Shown piece after piece: positions 4,247 to 15,536 of a stretch of 32,000 nucleotides of DNA. The stretch comes from Candidatus Nanoarchaeia archaeon (GTDB lineage Archaea > Nanobdellota > Nanobdellia > Woesearchaeales > JANQNC01): NCBI GenBank assembly GCA_028279745.1, contig JANQNC010000001.1, positions 870,001 to 902,000 on the forward strand. The letters are read 5' to 3'. How positions within the stretch are numbered: position 1 is the stretch's first letter; each line of letters begins with the position of its first letter. Under the pieces are notes generated by a model. It worked only from the letters and a program-made list of their open reading frames with translations. It made no database searches and was not told where the DNA came from. The position numbers were made by a program, and so were the translations under genes.

Positions 4247-5050
4247 ATGGGATTTGAAATAGACAAGAAAAATAAGAAGTTAGTAAAAGTAGTTGATAGA
4301 GTATCTAAGAATAAAACACTTCAAACATATTGGGTGTGTTCAAACATAAACGCAATAGATAGGATGGGAATACATGACCATGGTAAAACACACGTTTACA
4401 TAACCGCAAACCACGCACTAGAGATGATGAAGTTGTTGAAGCAGAATAAGATATATCCAAGCTTAGTTGAGAATTTTTCTTTGAATAAGAATATCAAAAA
4501 ATACAAATTAGACTATAATGATGCGGAAGTTGTTGTATTGTTGGCATCTTGTTTGCATGATATTGGGATAAGTATGCACAGAAGTGGACATTCATTAAGC
4601 TCAACATACATAGCAATACCAATACTTGATGAATTATTAAAAGGAATATACCCTGAAGAAGAGAAAACAATAATAAAATCAGAAGTTCTGCACTGTATTG
4701 TAACTCACGATTCAAATGCTGAACCATTAACAGTAGAAGCATCAGTAGTAAGGATAGCAGATGCTTTAGATCTGACAAAAGGAAGAGCAAAAATACCTTT
4801 CTCAGTCGGCACAACAGACACGCACGTAATATCTGCAATGGCAATAAAAGACCTAAATATAAGGACATCCTCAGAAAAACCAATCGTAATAGATATAACT
4901 ATGGGAAACTCAGCAGGAATCTTCCAGATAGAGAAACTTCTTAAATCGAAAATAAAGGGAAGCAAGCTAGAAAACGATGTTAAAATAGAGGCAACAATAG
5001 ACCCTTCCAGAGAAGACAAGAACATTCCCAGGAATATAACCTTTGAGTAA
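4247..5050 (+). CDS. HD-domain metal-dependent phosphohydrolase
   Basis: It has an H...HD...D pattern: HDHGKTH, CLHDIG and VRIADALD. There is no GYP motif, so it is not an HD-GYP protein. Confidence 0.65.
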   Translation: MGFEIDKKNKKLVKVVDRVSKNKTLQTYWVCSNINAIDRMGIHDHGKTHVYITANHALEMMKLLKQNKIYPSLVENFSLNKNIKKYKLDYNDAEVVVLLASCLHDIGISMHRSGHSLSSTYIAIPILDELLKGIYPEEEKTIIKSEVLHCIVTHDSNAEPLTVEASVVRIADALDLTKGRAKIPFSVGTTDTHVISAMAIKDLNIRTSSEKPIVIDITMGNSAGIFQIEKLLKSKIKGSKLENDVKIEATIDPSREDKNIPRNITFE

Positions 5051-5120
5051 CCATTCTTGAATAGAAACATATAAATACTTCTTTACAACATTTAGTATAT
5101 TCTTAACTAGGGAGGGTGAA

Positions 5121-6143
5121 ATGGCTAAAATAGTAGGAATAGACCAAGCACTAAACGATATTACAGTAGATGTAAAAAGTTCATTCTTAAGAAAGTTAGG
5201 CATTCAAAAAGGAGATAGAAAGACAATAAACGATGCGGAATTGGAGAAAATTCTCCCAGTCATAGAATCTTTACAGACTAGAGCAGGAGGAACTGTGAGA
5301 AATGTAATAAGGAATTTAGCTTCATTTGGAGAAGATACGGGCTTAATTGCGGCAATAGGAAATGATGCAAGAGGGAAAGAGTTTAGAGAGTCACTTAACG
5401 GAATAAAAGACTTAACAGTTCAATACCCTGGAAAAACAGGAGTGGTTATAGCATACCTTACTGAAGAAAAAGAAAGATCGTTCCAAACTTATTTGGGAGT
5501 GTCATCACAGCTATCAAAAACATCAATAGAAAAAAGAATAAAAGAAGGTGAGTTTGAAGATACAAAAGTATTAGTTATGTCTGGGTTTTTATTTGAAAAG
5601 ATAACTGCACCACTATATTCTATGGCGTGTTACGCCCTTGATTACGCAAACAAGAACGGGATTAAAGTTGCACTAAGTTTGGGTGCGATAGGATTTTTAG
5701 AAAGAAACTCAAAAAACATAATGCGAATCCTAAATAAATATGAAGTTGGGCTAGTATCATTGAATGAACAAGAGATAAACACTCTGACAGGAAAGAAAGA
5801 TTACAGGGATTCTGCAGTAAAAATAATGCCTTACTGTGATGTACTTACTATAACAAGAGGTCACAACGGGATATTTCTGAAAACAAAAGATGTTGAGACA
5901 GGAATAGGTTTAAGTGAAAAAGATAAAGTCGCAATAAAAAGTAAAAATGGTGCAGGTGATGCAGCATTCTCAACAGTAATCTATGAATATGCAAATTATC
6001 CTTTTAATGTGAGTATAGTGGGAAGAGCGGCAAACAAAATAGCGGGGAAAGTGATATGTTCAGATTCTTCAAGCATAGATAAAAAAATAGATTATTCCAA
6101 GATAAGGGATGAAGCCAAAAAAGAATTTTATGGTATAAAATGA
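5121..6143 (+). CDS. PfkB-family sugar/nucleoside kinase
   Basis: The N-terminal motif is GGTVRNVIRNLASFG and the C-terminal ATP motif is NGAGDAAFS. The SD gggagggtg lies upstream. Confidence 0.8.
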   Translation: MAKIVGIDQALNDITVDVKSSFLRKLGIQKGDRKTINDAELEKILPVIESLQTRAGGTVRNVIRNLASFGEDTGLIAAIGNDARGKEFRESLNGIKDLTVQYPGKTGVVIAYLTEEKERSFQTYLGVSSQLSKTSIEKRIKEGEFEDTKVLVMSGFLFEKITAPLYSMACYALDYANKNGIKVALSLGAIGFLERNSKNIMRILNKYEVGLVSLNEQEINTLTGKKDYRDSAVKIMPYCDVLTITRGHNGIFLKTKDVETGIGLSEKDKVAIKSKNGAGDAAFSTVIYEYANYPFNVSIVGRAANKIAGKVICSDSSSIDKKIDYSKIRDEAKKEFYGIK

Positions 6144-7189
6144 AAGCGATAAAATGGAACGCATTGTATAAAATAGTGCTAGAACTAAACAGAAGAGTAG
6201 ATGATTTTTCAGTTTATGAAAATTTAGCAAAAAATGTTCTTCCAACTGTGCTGCTTCTTAATAAGACGCATCTAACACTTTTTGATGAGAATGGAAGCGC
6301 ATCAAAAGAGTATCTTCATGGGTTTACTAAGGCAAATATGAAACTTTTAGGTGAAAGAGGAATTGTTGAGGAGACAAAAAGAGATCTACTAAAAGAGGGA
6401 ACGGTAGTAATAGTGAATGATACGCAGAAAGATAAACGAGCTGATAGAGACATAGCAAGAAAACTAGATGTTGGTTCATACGCAAACATAATATTTAGAG
6501 CATACGAAGATGAAACCCCTTCAGGATATTTGCATCTGTGTAAGTCAATGAAGGCAATAAAAAAAGGAGAAGTGCACAGGTTTACAAGAGAGGATATACC
6601 TTTTTTGGGTTCTGTGGGGGGGCTAGTTGCAATTTCGTTAAGGAATTTTGGTCTTTATGAGAAACTAAACTATGAAGCATTAACACATGGGTTAACAAAA
6701 TTGCCAAACATGCGATCTTTTTACAGGACACTTGATCAAAAATTGAGAGAGGTACAAGAAACTAAAGAAAACTTTTCAGTTGTGATGTCTGATATAGATA
6801 ATTTCAAGAGGGCAGTTAAGAAATACCAACATTTGGCTGGAAGTGAGATAATTAAAGAGCTAGCACGTCTTCTTAGAGAAAATATAAAAGATGAAGACTA
6901 TGTTTCAAACTATGCGGGAGATGAGTTTATATTCCTGCTTCCAAAAACAAAAAAAGAAGCAGCAGCAGTTCTAACCGATAGATTGAGGGAGGTTATTTCT
7001 CAGCATACTTTTTATCCAAAACATCCTAGAACCAGAAAAAAAGAAGAGTACAGAATGACCTGTTGTTTTGGGATAGCTGAATCAACACCCTCAATCAGCA
7101 GGGAAGAGATAATTAGGAGAGCAGATTATGCTTTAAATAAAGCAAAAGAAGAGAAAGGGAAAAACGCTTCGTTGGTTTATAGGAAATAA
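6140..7189 (+). CDS. GAF-like sensor plus degenerate GGDEF-domain protein (AGDEF)
   Basis: GGDEF-fold landmarks are present (LTKLPNMRSFY, SDIDNFK, YAGDEFIFLLP), but several conserved substrate-binding positions are substituted. The start overlaps the PfkB stop (ATGA at 6140-6143). Confidence 0.75.
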   Translation: MKAIKWNALYKIVLELNRRVDDFSVYENLAKNVLPTVLLLNKTHLTLFDENGSASKEYLHGFTKANMKLLGERGIVEETKRDLLKEGTVVIVNDTQKDKRADRDIARKLDVGSYANIIFRAYEDETPSGYLHLCKSMKAIKKGEVHRFTREDIPFLGSVGGLVAISLRNFGLYEKLNYEALTHGLTKLPNMRSFYRTLDQKLREVQETKENFSVVMSDIDNFKRAVKKYQHLAGSEIIKELARLLRENIKDEDYVSNYAGDEFIFLLPKTKKEAAAVLTDRLREVISQHTFYPKHPRTRKKEEYRMTCCFGIAESTPSISREEIIRRADYALNKAKEEKGKNASLVYRK

Positions 7190-7308: not shown

Positions 7309-8784
7309 ATGAACAAGGAACTGTTTAAACATATTGATGTTGAAGCCTGGAAAAAAATACAGGATAAATTCTCAAAATCTATCGGTTTGCCAGTAATAAC
7401 TATCGATGAAAAAGGGAATGAACTGATAACATCGGAGTTTCCATTCTTTTGTCAACTTATAAAGTCAAGAATAGGCGAAAAATGTCTTAAATGCAGAGAA
7501 CAGTATTTTGAAAGATTGAAGAAGCAGGAAAATAAGATATTGGTTTATTATTGTCATGCAGGACTTCTGAATATAATGGTGCCGATCCATGTAAATGGAA
7601 AACAGATGGGTGCAGTAGTCTGTGAAGGTGCATTGAACACAGACAAAAATATAGCAAAATGCAGAAGATTGTCTAAGGAAACAAGGATACATACTCTTGA
7701 GCTTTTGGATGAGTTAAAGAGTATGAGGTTGCGTAGGAATAAAGATATAGAAAAGTATGCGACACTGTTGTTTTTACTTTCACAAACAATACCTGAAGTA
7801 GTACATGAAAAACATGAAGTAGAAAAGAAAGCAAATGAGCTTCAGATACTAAATAGTATGAGTGGGATATTAAATTCTTCGCTTGAGATGGATAAGATCA
7901 TGGATGAAGTTATCAAGTTCTTATGTGAGATGCAGATGGTGGATGGTTGTTCTATCATATTATTAAACAAAAACGAAAGATATGGCAATGAGATAGAACA
8001 GAAAATATTGTACCCTTTGGAGAGGAGGATAATACAACAGATAAAGAAGACAAAAGAGACAATAACTGTTAAGGATTTCCAATCAGAACCTGAGTTTGAG
8101 GATTTGCCAAAAGTACATTACAGCGCGATGATATCAATCCCTTTGATATCTAAAGGGGAACTGCAAGGAGCTTTGAATATCTATCCGAAGCCAGGTGAAG
8201 AGATAACTGAGAATGATTACAAATTCTTTTCAATCATAGCAGATCAGATAACGATGGCGATAATAAACGCACAACAGTATGAACTAATCAGATTAATGGC
8301 AATAACTGATAAATTGACAGGGTTATATAACAGAAGGCATTTCATGAAAATATTAGATAATGAAGTAGAGAGAGTGAAGAGGACAGAGAAGTCGATTTCT
8401 ATTGCGTTGATAGACTTAGATAACTTTACAAACTACAACAATACCCACGGGCATCCAGCAGGAGACAGACTATTACAAAAAATATCAGAAATATTCAGAA
8501 AGAATGTGCGTACTATCGATACTGTTGGGAGATATGGTGGAGAAGAGTTCATAGTTATTTTACCTGAAGCAGACATAAATCAAGCAGGAGAGATATCAGA
8601 AAGACTAAGAAGATTTGTTGAGATAGAAGATTTTGAAGGCCAACACGCAACAATAAGCATGGGTGTAGCAACATTCAGAGGGAATGTCCCAGACAAAGAA
8701 CAGATGATACAAAAAGCAGACGAACTTCTTTACAGAGCAAAAGATTCAGGAAAAAATAAAGTAGTTTCAGAAGAGATACAATGA
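7309..8784 (+). CDS. PocR-GAF-GGDEF diguanylate cyclase
   Basis: The N-terminal region is a Cys-containing PocR-like sensor (GLPVITIDEKGN...FC...CLKC...YYCHAGLLNIMVPI) and the central region is GAF-like. The C-terminal domain has LTGLYNRRHF, DLDNFTNYNNTHGHPAGD, RYGGEEFIVILP and an RTID I-site five residues upstream of GGEEF. Confidence 0.88.
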   Translation: MNKELFKHIDVEAWKKIQDKFSKSIGLPVITIDEKGNELITSEFPFFCQLIKSRIGEKCLKCREQYFERLKKQENKILVYYCHAGLLNIMVPIHVNGKQMGAVVCEGALNTDKNIAKCRRLSKETRIHTLELLDELKSMRLRRNKDIEKYATLLFLLSQTIPEVVHEKHEVEKKANELQILNSMSGILNSSLEMDKIMDEVIKFLCEMQMVDGCSIILLNKNERYGNEIEQKILYPLERRIIQQIKKTKETITVKDFQSEPEFEDLPKVHYSAMISIPLISKGELQGALNIYPKPGEEITENDYKFFSIIADQITMAIINAQQYELIRLMAITDKLTGLYNRRHFMKILDNEVERVKRTEKSISIALIDLDNFTNYNNTHGHPAGDRLLQKISEIFRKNVRTIDTVGRYGGEEFIVILPEADINQAGEISERLRRFVEIEDFEGQHATISMGVATFRGNVPDKEQMIQKADELLYRAKDSGKNKVVSEEIQ

Positions 8785-11418: not shown

Positions 11419-11491
11419 GCCCCCGTAGCATAGTAGCTATTGCGTTTGACTTGTAATCAAAAGGTCGCGAGTGCAAATCTCGCCGGGGGCT
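11419..11491 (+). tRNA. tRNA-Thr (anticodon UGU), CCA not encoded
   Basis: Hand fold: a perfect 7-bp acceptor stem (gcccccg/cgggggc), a D arm, a 5-bp anticodon stem (tttga/tcaaa), the loop c-t-TGT-a-a, a 5-nt variable loop and a 5-bp T stem (gcgag/ctcgc). It is 73 nt long with canonical numbering throughout. Confidence 0.88.
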
Positions 11492-11495
11492 TTCT
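11481..11495 (+). repeat. attL-like direct repeat (3' end of tRNA-Thr plus 5 nt of trailer)
   Basis: The sequence cgccgggggctttct is identical to 15522-15536. Confidence 0.8.
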
Positions 11496-11524
11496 GTATT
11501 TTTACTCAGTGAAAAGGGCTTTTT

Positions 11525-12346
11525 TCACAGATTAAATTTAGAATTCTTTAAAACTATCTCAACTATATCAGAATAAAAAGAATAAAGATTGGGTCCTGAT
11601 ATTGGTGCTTCTCCTGGATGAGCGCTATGATTTCTCATCATAAAACAATGTCTTAATCTAGCATGTTGATTAAGATCTATATATCCCAAATATTCTAGGA
11701 TTAATAAGAGATCTGTGTCAAAGATTTCTCTTATTTCAGATAATGAAGATATTTCATATTTCTTATTAAACTTCTTAAATCTTCCAATTGTTTTTGACTT
11801 CATCTCAAGAACTGCTTTGTTGAATTTATCAAAACCTTCTTTCGCTATTTTGTTGTGTATCCTGTTTATTGTCGCACACCATCCTAGAATGATTGCTGCC
11901 CTTAAGCACCCTGATTGAGCACACTTAGCTGCTTCATTAAGGTATTCTTTTTCATCATTCTCAATATCATCAATAAAAGGATTGATGTTTAATCCTGATG
12001 AGATGCTTATATCGCTAGTCTCTATAATTTGTATGAGTTCTGACAGATATCCTTTACTAATCTCTTCAAGTAAAGAGACATATGTTGCTTTCCGCGTGGC
12101 TTTTTTTGAATATGCCAAGAGATTAGAAAAATACTCAGAATACTTACTCAACAAGTCTTTATCTAAATTAGTTCTATTAAGTAAGATTTTTAAATCATCA
12201 AACCAATCTCTGCATATTTTTACTACTTCCTCTTTAAGGTCGCCTCTGTTCACAATAGCAGACTGGTACTTTACCATCTTACCAAGTGTCTTTTTTATCT
12301 CTTTGTGATGTTCTTGTAGCTTGTTAAGGATTTCTTCTTTAGTCAT
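11525..12346 (-). CDS. HEPN-domain protein (Rx4H motif), putative RNase effector
   Basis: The C-terminal helical domain (EAAKCAQSGCLRAAIILGWCATINRIH ... RLRHCFMMRNHSAHPGE) carries R-N-H-S-A-H, which matches the HEPN Rx4-6H signature. The N-terminal half is helical and uncharacterised. Confidence 0.65.
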   Translation of the reverse strand: MTKEEILNKLQEHHKEIKKTLGKMVKYQSAIVNRGDLKEEVVKICRDWFDDLKILLNRTNLDKDLLSKYSEYFSNLLAYSKKATRKATYVSLLEEISKGYLSELIQIIETSDISISSGLNINPFIDDIENDEKEYLNEAAKCAQSGCLRAAIILGWCATINRIHNKIAKEGFDKFNKAVLEMKSKTIGRFKKFNKKYEISSLSEIREIFDTDLLLILEYLGYIDLNQHARLRHCFMMRNHSAHPGEAPISGPNLYSFYSDIVEIVLKNSKFNL

Positions 12347-12954
12347 TCTTGAATCAAGTCTCTTATTATTTCAGCCATTTTTACGTACCCTTGTCCACTA
12401 AGTTCAACAGCTCCTGCTTCATTTATTTTTTTCTCGGTTATTGCCCCTTTAAAGAATTTATGCTGGTTTTTTAGACTAGTTGTAAAGTTGCTATCGAATA
12501 GTCCTTCTTCCCTGCAGGTTTCTCTAACTTCAATGTAATCTGCTTTGAATTGTCCAGATGATAATGCATTTTCAAGGAGAATCATAAATACTTTCTGTAC
12601 TTGTGCTTTAGCCATCTGATCGCTATTTATTTTGTATATTGGCAGAATAGGTTCATGATCCAACATAAATAATTTTTCCAAGTCCTTTTCTGAAAGACCA
12701 TTTTTTCTAAGCATAACCAAAACGTTTCCTGGCAACTTGTACCCTTGACTCATACTTTGAGTAACAGCGTCTTCATTAGCAACCTCTTCTTGTTCTTGTC
12801 CTTTTTCTACAGGCAAATTGAAGTCTATATTTCCAAATGCAAGACCAAATAGCATTTCAAAACACTTTTCCTGAACATTTTCAGGGCTCTTACTAACTAT
12901 ATTGTTGATTTCATCAACTTCTTCTTGTACTTTTTTCCAATCTTTTTTGTCCAT
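12343..12954 (-). CDS. hypothetical protein, upstream partner of the HEPN gene
   Basis: It is a 203-aa ORF with an SD (ggaggat) 6-7 nt upstream. Its stop overlaps the HEPN start (ATGA at 12343-12346). I recognised no motif, and it has no MNT-type GSx(n)DxD motif. Confidence 0.6.
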   Translation of the reverse strand: MDKKDWKKVQEEVDEINNIVSKSPENVQEKCFEMLFGLAFGNIDFNLPVEKGQEQEEVANEDAVTQSMSQGYKLPGNVLVMLRKNGLSEKDLEKLFMLDHEPILPIYKINSDQMAKAQVQKVFMILLENALSSGQFKADYIEVRETCREEGLFDSNFTTSLKNQHKFFKGAITEKKINEAGAVELSGQGYVKMAEIIRDLIQE

Positions 12955-13118
12955 TTTGTAATCCTCCGATAAGTGATTTTAATTGGGTTTTCACTTATAC
13001 TTATAAATGTTTCGTCGGATAAATCACTTTTTCTCAAAAGTAAGAGGTATATTTGTCACTTAATGGATATGAATTTAATATAAGTGTATAAGAACATCAT
13101 AGAGGGTAAACTTGAAAA

Positions 13119-14345
13119 TTAATCACTTCTTGACATAAGTGAGCGGTAAACGCCCTCTATCAAATCTCTGCTCTTTTCCACATTTACTTTTTCCATTGTT
13201 TCGAACATTTTGAGTTGTTGTTCTTGCATTTGTTCTAGTTTTTGTTGCATTTCTTGCATTCTTTGAGCGTAGAGTTTTTCTCTCATTTTGCTTTCTTCTA
13301 GTTGTCCGTTTAGTTGGGACATGTTATGTTGGTATATTTTGCTTTTGGATCTTCTTCCATCAATTGCTAGAAAGTTTACATATTTATCTATCTCATCACT
13401 TGATGGTTTGTGTCCTAGTCTTTTGTTTACTTCGTCTGTTGTCCAGTCTTTTTTCAGCAAGTCACAAGCCATACTGCTTCTTAGATCTTTCCATGTGACA
13501 TTTTCTCCGTTTGGAAGACATTTTGATTTGGTGATTCTTACTGCTCTTTTTAGAATCTGTTTTGCACTAGAATAGCAGAATTTGAATAATTCTTCTTGAG
13601 GTTCTAGATCTTGCAAGTAAACTGTTAATAATCTTACAGTTTCGTCATAGTTTGTTATTTCGCTTCTTGGTGTTCTTGATCTCTTAAGAATTTCTCTTCT
13701 AAGGTTTACTCTGTATTCTTCTTGTTTTGTTTCAGGATTAACAATCTTTGTAAAATCACACTTTCTAAGTCTTAATAACGAATTTATGTTTTCTCCTATG
13801 TCAAAAGCCAACCAAACCAATAATTTTCCATCAAATCTACCGATAACATCAATTATTGTTCTTACTGTTTTTTCTTCTATAAATCTTACTTCATCACTTT
13901 TCTTTGTTGGTGCAAATTCCATCACGTCTTGCACTATTTCGTGTTTTCCTGCGAGCTTGAATAATTTACTTCTAAATATCTTGTTATAATATGATGTTAA
14001 GTCTTTGAATGGTCTGCCTTGTTTGTTAAGGATTTTTCCATCTTCTAATGCATCATAGACTCGTTTAAAATCTTCTTTTGTAATGTGTTTTAACGGCTTA
14101 TTCTTGAACCACTTATTGATATTGGTGAACTTAATAAGATAGCCATATAAGGTTTTATAGCACCCGTCGTCAAGTTCAGGAAGCCCATTCTGTCTCTTTA
14201 ACTTATACTCCTGTTTTTCAAAGAATTCTCTATACAAATCCCTATTTTCCTGACAAATATAAGGATCTCTAAGAAACTTTCGTACTCTTTTCCTATACCT
14301 TTTTTCATAAGTGCTTTTCCATGCCATCGTCGGAGATGAGTCCAT
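13119..14345 (-). CDS. tyrosine recombinase / integrase (divergent)
   Basis: The C-terminal catalytic region is TWKDLRSSMACDLL ... KRLGHKPSSDEIDKYVNF, which fits the box II pattern xLRxxxA ... LGH ... Y. A box I-like segment (SLLRLRKCDF) lies upstream. A glutamine-rich coiled-coil tail follows the catalytic region. Confidence 0.7.
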   Translation of the reverse strand: MDSSPTMAWKSTYEKRYRKRVRKFLRDPYICQENRDLYREFFEKQEYKLKRQNGLPELDDGCYKTLYGYLIKFTNINKWFKNKPLKHITKEDFKRVYDALEDGKILNKQGRPFKDLTSYYNKIFRSKLFKLAGKHEIVQDVMEFAPTKKSDEVRFIEEKTVRTIIDVIGRFDGKLLVWLAFDIGENINSLLRLRKCDFTKIVNPETKQEEYRVNLRREILKRSRTPRSEITNYDETVRLLTVYLQDLEPQEELFKFCYSSAKQILKRAVRITKSKCLPNGENVTWKDLRSSMACDLLKKDWTTDEVNKRLGHKPSSDEIDKYVNFLAIDGRRSKSKIYQHNMSQLNGQLEESKMREKLYAQRMQEMQQKLEQMQEQQLKMFETMEKVNVEKSRDLIEGVYRSLMSRSD

Positions 14346-14373
14346 AACTCATATATAAAGAGGCTCGATTAAT

Positions 14374-14505
14374 TTAATACTCATAATACCTCTTAACCTT
14401 TCTTTTCTTCTTATCCAATTCACACAAATAGTCGTAGATCTTATCAAAATCCCAACCCCACTTAATACGATCTTTCATGATTTTTAGCAATTCAGTCCTT
14501 TTCAT
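14374..14505 (-). CDS. small 43-codon ORF upstream of the integrase (possible excisionase-like or DNA-binding protein)
   Basis: I translated it by hand: MKRTELLKIMKDRIKWGWDFDKIYDYLCELDKKKRKVKRYYEY. It is co-oriented with the integrase and ends 28 nt before the integrase start. There is no homology evidence. Confidence 0.3.
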   Translation of the reverse strand: MKRTELLKIMKDRIKWGWDFDKIYDYLCELDKKKRKVKRYYEY

Positions 14506-14752
14506 AATACTCATTTACAACATAGGAGGTATATAAATCATCCAAAAAGATAAAATGTTTAAAGATGATAAATTTATAAAGAGGGAAAAAGTCCAAAAGG
14601 AAAAGAAAACTTCTGTCATTTAATTCTAAAAGATTCTTGTAAATAATTCTCCTCCCACTTTATTTATAAATAAAAGCCATTTATAAAGGCAGATTAAAAA
14701 GCAGTGGTTTGTTTGCATTAATTTTATATATGCATTTAGATTTCTTGCTATT

Positions 14753-15169
14753 ATGATAATTACAATTGGAGGCAGTATGGTCTTTGCTAAAGAGCAAGTA
14801 GAAGCTAAGAAAGTTCTAGAAAATAAAGGGCATGAAGTACTATTAACAGATAATATCGAGGAATATGTTAATTCTCCAAGTATTAAACAAAGTTATGAAG
14901 AAGAGCTAAGAATTTCTTTAGAAAATGATATAATGATGAGTTTCTTCAATAAATTAGCTAAAAGTGATGCATTTCTTGTTTGTAATTATGATAAAAAAGG
15001 GATAAAAGGATATCTAGGTACTTCAGTTTTGATGGAAATGGGCTTAGCATACTATCTAAACAAAAAGATTTTCTTGTTATATGATATAGATAGAACACAA
15101 GGTTACGCATTAGAAGTTGATATAATTAAACCAACAGTAATTAATGAAGACTATTCTAAAATCAAATAA
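14753..15169 (+). CDS. nucleoside 2-deoxyribosyltransferase-like protein
   Basis: It begins with a small Rossmann-like strand (MIITIGGSM). The motif DAFLVCN...GYLGTSVLMEMGLAYYLNKKIFLL resembles the NDT-family D..GT..E.G.A motif that contains the catalytic Glu. Confidence 0.5.
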   Translation: MIITIGGSMVFAKEQVEAKKVLENKGHEVLLTDNIEEYVNSPSIKQSYEEELRISLENDIMMSFFNKLAKSDAFLVCNYDKKGIKGYLGTSVLMEMGLAYYLNKKIFLLYDIDRTQGYALEVDIIKPTVINEDYSKIK

Positions 15170-15240
15170 ACGGACGATTTTTTGTTTCTTAAATAAGGTT
15201 ACCCTTTTTTAGTTTTATATATCAGGGGACGATTATTTGG

Positions 15241-15265
15241 TGCTATCAAAGAGTTTGTTTAGGGC
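15241..15265 (+). repeat. 25-nt direct repeat, copy 1, in the non-coding arm of the element
   Basis: The sequence tgctatcaaagagtttgtttagggc matches 15378-15402 at 21 of 25 positions. Confidence 0.6.
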
Positions 15266-15377
15266 TATGATTTCAACCTTACAAGAAGATGATTCTTAAG
15301 CCACAAAGTTTATACCCCCTGAATCCAACCTGACAATCAACCTTACAAAATTCAAGAAAACTACATCAAGAAAAAGA

Positions 15378-15402
15378 TGCTATCAAGAATTCTGTTTAGG
15401 GC
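15378..15402 (+). repeat. 25-nt direct repeat, copy 2
   Basis: The sequence tgctatcaagaattctgtttagggc matches 15241-15265 at 21 of 25 positions. Confidence 0.6.
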
Positions 15403-15521
15403 AAAAATTTAAGAGGATTTTTGCTCAATTCATGCAGTACAACGTTTAAGACGTGCAGATTCAAGAGGAGTTTCGGGGGTGAGTAAAAACCCTCTGTTTA
15501 TGAGTAAAAATTATCTCGAGC

Positions 15522-15536
15522 CGCCGGGGGCTTTCT
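15522..15536 (+). repeat. attR-like direct repeat
   Basis: The sequence cgccgggggctttct is identical to 11481-11495. The partial tRNA-like atctcg lies just upstream. Confidence 0.8.

Follow-up and report, generated by a model that had tools for sequence, protein, structure and literature searches.

In a 32,000-nucleotide (nt) stretch of a Candidatus Nanoarchaeia archaeon genome (contig JANQNC010000001.1, positions 870,001 to 902,000; hereafter the window), two overlapping genes encode an acidic protein of 203 amino acids (aa) and a 273-aa protein whose C-terminal half resembles a HEPN ribonuclease (RNase) domain. We refer to the first protein as the partner and to the second as the HEPN protein or putative effector. 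We propose, with a probability of about 55%, that the two form a conflict module of the toxin-antitoxin or abortive-infection type, one that is self-contained and moves horizontally. The two genes travel together across archaea and bacteria, which makes an uncharacterised toxin-antitoxin or anti-virus module the most likely identity of the pair. Here it is the predicted main cargo of a small element integrated at a tRNA gene. Positions below are those of the window, and the features of the pair are as follows:

12343-12954, minus strand: open reading frame of the partner, 203 aa, with a helical hairpin (aa 6-40), a disordered acidic linker (aa 46-67) and a winged-helix-like domain (aa ~72-203)
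11525-12346, minus strand: open reading frame of the HEPN-like AF_1680-family protein, 273 aa, with a precomputed PF27235 assignment, an N-terminal four-helix domain (aa 1-110) and a C-terminal HEPN-like domain (aa ~128-273)
12343-12346, minus strand: ATGA shared by the stop codon of the partner gene and the start codon of the HEPN gene, read from the sequence
11618-11635, minus strand: predicted catalytic motif RNHSAH (R238-x4-H243), read from the translation; R238, N239 and H243 are invariant

The two genes form a compact module of 1.4 kb. A preliminary description of this DNA had reported two minus-strand open reading frames that overlap by 4 nt, and we reproduced its coordinates and lengths exactly. 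The junction reads ...caagaATGActaaa, where the TGA of the partner gene overlaps the downstream ATG. GGAGGA precedes the partner gene's own start; upstream of the HEPN ATG there is no Shine-Dalgarno-like sequence. The layout is that of type II toxin-antitoxin systems: co-directional, abutting or overlapping genes, with an acidic partner (median isoelectric point (pI) 5.5 in the family; 4.9 in the window) encoded upstream of a basic HEPN protein (median pI 8.7).

Central to our proposal is the linkage between the two genes. A partner homologue stands directly upstream in 24 of 24 loci that encode a full two-domain HEPN protein; these loci include a distant clade in which the partners are only ~25% identical. 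Conversely, the partner is absent from all six loci where the N-terminal domain of the HEPN protein has been replaced or lost: a truncated copy, a 57-aa remnant, one leucine-rich-repeat (LRR) fusion, and three ParB_N fusions. Because it is missing wherever that domain is missing or replaced, the partner appears to be tied to the N-terminal domain of the effector. Junctions in 19 other loci show either this 4-nt overlap (-4) or a gap of 1-7 nt (up to +7). In addition, the two proteins diverge in step: their pairwise distances correlate with r=0.91, a value reached in 0 of 5000 permutations. The co-occurrence of homologues, which the preliminary description had set as a check on its proposal, is thus borne out, and the 24/24 count is consistent with obligate pairing. 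Two sequences that match both profiles, P0302 and P0307, were considered as Rosetta-stone fusions; they resemble deletion chimeras of partial genes and were not counted.

The HEPN protein belongs to Pfam family PF27235 (AF_1680), an assignment that is precomputed for every listed homologue as well as for P0001, the identical protein, and that we adopt here. A word-seeded search returned 172 homologues, all with a precomputed PF27235 assignment, and one UniRef homologue bears the name “RiboL-PSP-HEPN domain-containing.” An exhaustive search with a profile of the HEPN domain recovered 844 representatives at E<=1e-3 (a count that takes in fragments and variant architectures), of which 276 also pass E<=1e-10 and 102 pass E<=1e-30. 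The RNHSAH motif stands inside RLRHCFMMRNHSAHPG in the translated minus strand. Seven residues, C234, F235, R238, N239, H243, P244 and G245 (CFxxRNxxxHPG), are invariant in 34 aligned homologues that are 40-50% identical overall, so the motif is more than a chance occurrence. Among 32 members that are divergent or of variant architecture, the arginine and the histidine reach at least 90% conservation. The residues R238-N239-H-S-A-H243 make up an Rx4-6H motif with a polar residue (N, D or H) after the arginine, as HEPN domains have it.

The AlphaFold model of this protein (predicted local distance difference test (pLDDT) 90.7) contains an N-terminal four-helix domain (aa 3-110) and a C-terminal bundle with helices at 133-144, 148-170, 225-241 and 251-266, and an insert at 171-224. 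Residues 238-243 occupy the end of helix 225-241, the third of the bundle, and the start of the next loop. In published HEPN domains the motif lies where helix 3 ends and in the next loop, and a long insert separates helices 2 and 3 (PMC3710099); the match to this arrangement makes the position of the motif canonical. As modelled, the C-terminal domain has the published HEPN layout. The Rx4H signature noted in the preliminary description is therefore present, invariant, and placed in the model where a HEPN motif belongs.

Direct homology evidence for HEPN identity lies near threshold. The best score was obtained with HEPN_RiboL-PSP (PF18735), which scores 25.5 bits (E=1.4e-5) with a consensus of distant members, short of its cut-off of 28.4, and matches member P0115 weakly (E=1.1e-3). 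HEPN_Swt1 and DUF4145 give weak matches to individual members or the consensus (E 0.003-0.01). These sub-threshold matches converge on three HEPN families of Pfam: HEPN_RiboL-PSP, HEPN_Swt1, and DUF4145. The C-terminal domain also has a match (E=2.6e-11) to the phage family phrog_27609, whose function is unknown. Sequence and profile searches of the PDB with the HEPN family returned coiled-coil noise (Vipp1) alone. In the literature, we found no function for AF_1680/PF27235, nothing related under the name “RiboL-PSP,” and no record, in the context of PF27235, of an obligate partner.

The partner family has 7 relatives in a first search and 112 with a profile that includes locus-derived sequences. 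The partner matches no family in Pfam, NCBIfam, PADLOC or PHROG, and queries with the family consensus changed nothing; isolated domains likewise gave no credible match in Pfam and NCBIfam, and sequence and profile searches of the PDB with the partner, as well as with the neighbouring integrase, gave nothing useful. The AlphaFold model of the partner (pLDDT 87.9 overall, ~97 over the C-terminal domain) comprises three segments: a hairpin (aa 6-40) with a conserved CFE(L/M)LF, a disordered acidic linker (aa 46-67), and an alpha/beta domain. Foldseek places this last domain, in nearly all top matches, with winged-helix folds (MarR, PadR, forkhead, STIV F93, and the winged helix of MCM8); these matches are weak (E 0.1-1, probability up to 0.9). 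We predict a winged-helix-like fold for the C-terminal domain on the basis of the model, so the earlier statement that the partner has no obvious helix-turn-helix is probably wrong, with the Foldseek values of E 0.1-1 as the measure of that correction. The statement that the partner is not an MNT nucleotidyltransferase holds: NTP_transf_2 and Polbeta have no match at E<=1 in the partner, in the family consensus or in 5 other members, and the predicted fold is a hairpin with a winged-helix-like domain. An MNT-type antitoxin identity is rejected, since the nucleotidyltransferase domain is absent.

The preliminary description had also placed the pair as the main cargo of an integrative element, and the surrounding sequence agrees. 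The features of the element are as follows:

11419-11491, plus strand: tRNA-Thr (anticodon TGT), the integration target (ARAGORN; Rfam tRNA 67.9 bits)
11481-11495, plus strand: candidate attL, a 15-nt direct repeat CGCCGGGGGCTTTCT made of the last 11 nt of the tRNA and 4 further nt
15522-15536, plus strand: candidate attR, an exact second copy of CGCCGGGGGCTTTCT, 4041 nt downstream of the first
13119-14345, minus strand: tyrosine-recombinase-like integrase, 408 aa (phrog_1 integrase, E=6.8e-13)
14753-15169, plus strand: possible second cargo open reading frame, 138 aa, with a weak match to nucleoside 2-deoxyribosyltransferase
12969-13142, no strand: AAGTGA cluster region upstream of the partner gene, between the integrase stop and partner start codons

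The element extends over ~11481-15536 (~4 kb). It combines a tyrosine recombinase with direct repeats that duplicate the 3' end of a tRNA, the hallmarks of a tRNA-targeting integrative element, and the exact 15-nt repeat compares with 0 expected in 100 shuffles. Weaker matches of the integrase are to Phage_integrase (E=6.6e-5, below cut-off) and XerA_Arch (E=1.1e-6). A 46-aa open reading frame lies between the integrase and the 138-aa frame, which may be a second cargo gene; its match to PF05014 is sub-threshold (E=3.9e-4, 21 bits, cut-off 28.8). Some retron systems use Ndt-like proteins as effectors. Upstream of the partner gene, 6 of the 28 AAGTGA/TCACTT hexamers of the window fall within 172 nt, in the form (AT)AAGTGA/TCACTT(AT). 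They include two inverted repeats, ATAAGTGA-N14-TCACTTAT, 14 nt upstream of the partner ATG, and AATCACTT-N6-ATAAGTGA; upstream of this gene there is an 8-nt palindrome. The cluster could represent an operator or arm-type sites of the integrase. By eye, the tRNA-Thr has an atypical T-loop (TGCAAAT, where TTCRANN is usual) and a D-loop that lacks the GG pair, yet it scores 67.9 bits with Rfam. In the right arm of the element, a non-coding region inside attR holds a 33-nt imperfect direct repeat (15241-15273 and 15378-15410; 79% identity, 137 nt apart).

Outside this genome, the pair is found in Bradyrhizobium, Rhodopseudomonas, Micropepsaceae, FCPU426, Bacteroidetes, Deltaproteobacteria, and archaeal metagenome-assembled genomes. 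The pair has a patchy distribution that spans archaea and bacteria, and the genes around it are unrelated from one locus to the next; sequences from Alphaproteobacteria, FCPU426, Bacteroidetes, archaeal metagenome-assembled genomes and this genome share 40-50% identity. The C-terminal domain of the HEPN protein also occurs in variant architectures, fused to ParB_N, LRR, NTP_transf_2 or zinc-finger domains, all of which are typical HEPN companions.

Individual loci offer further observations. At one locus (L028), a ParB_N-HEPN fusion of 515 aa (5001-6548) precedes three genes: one of 369 aa that faintly matches radical-SAM, a HATPase_c_3 gene of 677 aa, and a type I HsdM gene. The cluster resembles a defence island and may be a distinct system. 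In a Thorarchaeota metagenome-assembled genome (L020, 1585-2862), a frame of at least 425 aa joins an N-terminal leucine-rich-repeat region to an AF_1680-type HEPN domain, and there is no partner; this suggests that the LRR is a sensor domain swapped for the partner-linked N-terminal domain. The only copy on a viral contig (L031, 5383-6827; IMG/VR UViG_3300044703_000055) sits near a phage-type exonuclease and a tRNA-Ala, and its HEPN gene is split into two open reading frames by a frameshift or an assembly error. Two genes upstream of the pair in the closest metagenomic relative (L001, 3099-4574) lies a gene for the RNA ligase RtcB; RtcB repairs 2',3'-cyclic-phosphate ends, such as HEPN RNases produce, and its presence in one locus only may be a coincidence. 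A decayed 57-aa C-terminal HEPN remnant (L022, 5977-6150) lies directly downstream of a restriction endonuclease frame that appears Mrr-like by eye. Lastly, one pair (L027, 1682-4661) is flanked on one side by Ogg-HhH, PfkB-Nuc_deoxyrib_tr, and QueC genes and on the other by a 931-aa unknown gene and an N6_N4 methylase. The window likewise has Ogg-HhH (1175-1804) and PfkB-like (5121-6143) genes, which may point to related hosts.

We infer the toxin-antitoxin or abortive-infection function of the pair, and with it the RNase activity, toxicity, physical binding, bound domain, and trigger. The 273-aa protein would be the effector, and its C-terminal domain a metal-independent HEPN RNase in the RiboL-PSP/Swt1/Abi2-like branch, the putative catalytic motif being R238, N239 and H243. 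Like other HEPN RNases, it would have to dimerise to form an active site. The acidic 203-aa partner would be made first from the shared mRNA, with translation of the effector coupled to it; the partner would then bind the effector, probably through the N-terminal four-helix domain of the latter, and hold it inactive. Were the partner lost or sequestered, the RNase would be set free, cleave cellular RNA and arrest growth. The trigger may be that the element is lost, that proteolysis sets in, or that the winged-helix-like domain recognises a viral product or nucleic acid. A narrower version, which we regard as possible though on balance doubtful, holds that the pair is a new, stand-alone abortive-infection system of two components, widespread and cross-domain: the partner and the four-helix domain would constitute an undescribed sensing and inhibition module, in which the winged-helix-like protein cages the RNase and releases it upon encounter with a viral protein or nucleic acid. 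Such a system would be a retron-free equivalent of the HEPN-winged-helix logic reported for type IX retrons.

Several results weigh against a mobile toxin-antitoxin or abortive-infection module with a HEPN effector. At the level of the effector, the 273-aa window protein has no match at E<=1 among curated HEPN models, and no curated HEPN model reaches its own cut-off with any query tried. Foldseek of its model against the PDB gave nothing significant (best Csm6, E=1, and HepT toxin, E=8.4), nor did a viral structure library give any match. The structural check that the preliminary description had set for the HEPN-like fold is thus divided: the motif and helix layout are canonical in the AlphaFold model, but Foldseek finds no significant PDB match. 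At the level of the partner, the winged-helix-like domain has a net charge of -1; as it is not basic, DNA binding by the partner is uncertain. Palindromes are not enriched upstream of the partner gene in 18 homologous loci, and since there is neither a basic domain nor a conserved upstream palindrome, classical autoregulation by DNA binding is unsupported. Moreover, the co-divergence of the two proteins is a sign of co-inheritance, not of physical contact. At the level of context, flanking genes are mostly housekeeping (130 neighbour open reading frames in 19 loci); a DNA methylase lies near the pair in only 3 of the 19 loci and DUF3800 in 2. An invariable location in defence islands, one of the checks proposed for the pair, is rejected on these neighbours. 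In PADLOC-DB v2.0, neither member of the pair has a match at E<=1, nor do the integrase and the flanking open reading frames, and the plasmids of PLSDB and the phages of INPHARED hold no homologue of the HEPN protein; plasmid and phage collections yielded none of the integrase either.

The explanation that competes best assigns the partner a positive role: it would be an obligate co-effector, sensor or activator in a constitutive complex that an invader activates, so that the HEPN protein alone would be neither toxic nor active and the pair would form a two-component abortive-infection system. We judge this unlikely, if by no means far-fetched. With ~200 aa in three segments and a domain pLDDT of ~97, the partner is larger and more structured than typical labile antitoxins; its presence strictly follows the N-terminal domain of the effector, and other architectures swap that domain for sensor-like LRR or ParB_N regions. 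Evidence from the type IX retron Retron-Kva2 points both ways: deletion of its winged-helix gene abolished defence, but the winged-helix protein also acts as an antitoxin. Finally, the upstream position of the partner gene, the pairing of an acidic with a basic protein, and coupled translation fit the type II antitoxin pattern instead, and so speak for a neutralising partner.

An improbable third explanation is that the pair is a plain addiction module, acting by post-segregational killing, whose sole role is to stabilise the 4-kb element and which has no anti-virus function. The pair is the apparent main cargo of a minimal integrase element, most homologous loci lie outside defence islands, and PADLOC holds no match, all as this explanation would have it. 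However, most of the other loci have no integrase among their 25 commonest neighbour families, and no adjacent integrase homologue was detected; because no neighbouring integrase was detected, most of these loci contain no obvious element to stabilise. Related HEPN architectures, moreover, adjoin restriction-modification and HATPase genes.

Least probable is that the C-terminal domain is not a catalytic HEPN RNase, its RNxxxH serving ligand binding or structure and the pair being a housekeeping regulator with an accessory protein: some HEPN domains are indeed non-catalytic, and the curated models and structural searches fall short as described above, but even highly divergent members keep R, N and H invariant, the motif occupies the canonical position, the HEPN-typical fusion partners MNT and ParB are found, and a patchy, horizontally transferred distribution is atypical of housekeeping genes.

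HEPN RNases are recurrent effectors of prokaryotic immunity and of toxin-antitoxin systems; how each is silenced varies, and therein lies the interest. The module described here joins PF27235, a catalogued but unstudied family, with an unannotated partner family, and it is found in Alphaproteobacteria (including Bradyrhizobium), several other bacterial phyla, and archaeal metagenome-assembled genomes. The novelty claimed in the preliminary description holds in part: neither protein matches PADLOC v2.0, but the HEPN protein is already catalogued as PF27235. The partner family and the obligate pairing appear to be undescribed. Should a toxin-antitoxin or defence role be borne out, the HEPN repertoire would gain a new neutralisation partner and the uncharacterised family PF27235 a function, and the compact 1.4-kb system would be easy to test in E. 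coli. As HEPN conflict modules are already numerous, the module is not conceptually surprising.

The rest of the window bears on the host. The preliminary description had called the element archaeal, which is plausible: the TruD encoded in the window is closest to the solved Methanosarcina enzyme, and a GTPase is of the YchF-related PRK09602 type. On the other hand, the window carries two GGDEF diguanylate cyclase genes (6140-7189 and 7309-8784) and a bacterial-type adenylate kinase. Such a mixture would suit an atypical archaeon or else a bacterium that has genes of archaeal type, an archaeal origin being likely.

Among known systems, the HEPN proteins of the RiboL-PSP (PF18735), Swt1, Abi2 (AbiD, AbiF) and DUF4145 groups share an RN-x2-[AS]-H-type motif with the protein described here. 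The best near-threshold profile similarity, over the motif-bearing half of the domain, is to RiboL-PSP HEPN, for which an association with ParB has been described (PMC3710099), a feature shared with the ParB_N fusions of the AF_1680 type. Nevertheless, that score stays below the cut-off (25.5 versus 28.4 bits), and no L-PSP fusion is seen here. Relative to the RiboL-PSP, Swt1, Abi2 and DUF4145 groups, the present system has an extra N-terminal four-helix domain and an obligate partner of ~200 aa. AbiD and AbiF act as single genes.

HepT-MntA offers an analogy at the level of the operon: a HEPN RNase toxin and an adjacent neutralising gene in two-gene form, the role that we propose here. One AF_1680-type domain is fused to NTP_transf_2. 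The present HEPN domain, however, is not of the DUF86 type, and the partner has neither a nucleotidyltransferase domain nor its motif; because that domain is absent, neutralisation by AMPylation, as in HepT/MntA, is excluded. RnlA-RnlB and LsoA-LsoB likewise have an anti-phage role and a HEPN RNase toxin of several domains, which a dedicated protein antitoxin neutralises; their antitoxin gene is small and lies downstream of the toxin gene, unlike the partner gene here. PDB sequence and profile searches and Foldseek gave no sequence or fold match of the 273-aa protein to RnlA.

The closest mechanistic precedent appears to be Retron-Kva2. Its winged-helix protein, of ~200-250 aa and ending in a winged-helix/helix-turn-helix domain, wraps the HEPN toxin and neutralises it alone. 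An association of the present pair with a retron was considered and rejected: no reverse-transcriptase-like open reading frame occurs in the 4-kb element, Rfam finds tRNA alone in the window, and reverse transcriptase is absent among the 25 commonest neighbour families. The two systems differ in other respects as well. The gene order is reversed; the Kva2 HEPN protein lacks the Rx4-6H motif that is invariant in the AF_1680 protein; and the Kva2 winged-helix protein carries two alpha-beta HEPN-binding domains, in place of which the partner has a helical hairpin and a disordered linker. Because Kva2 has a reverse transcriptase and a non-coding RNA, the opposite gene order, and a HEPN protein without Rx4-6H, we treat it as an analogy for the pair and not as a demonstrated homologue: a precedent for how a winged-helix protein may hold a HEPN toxin in check.

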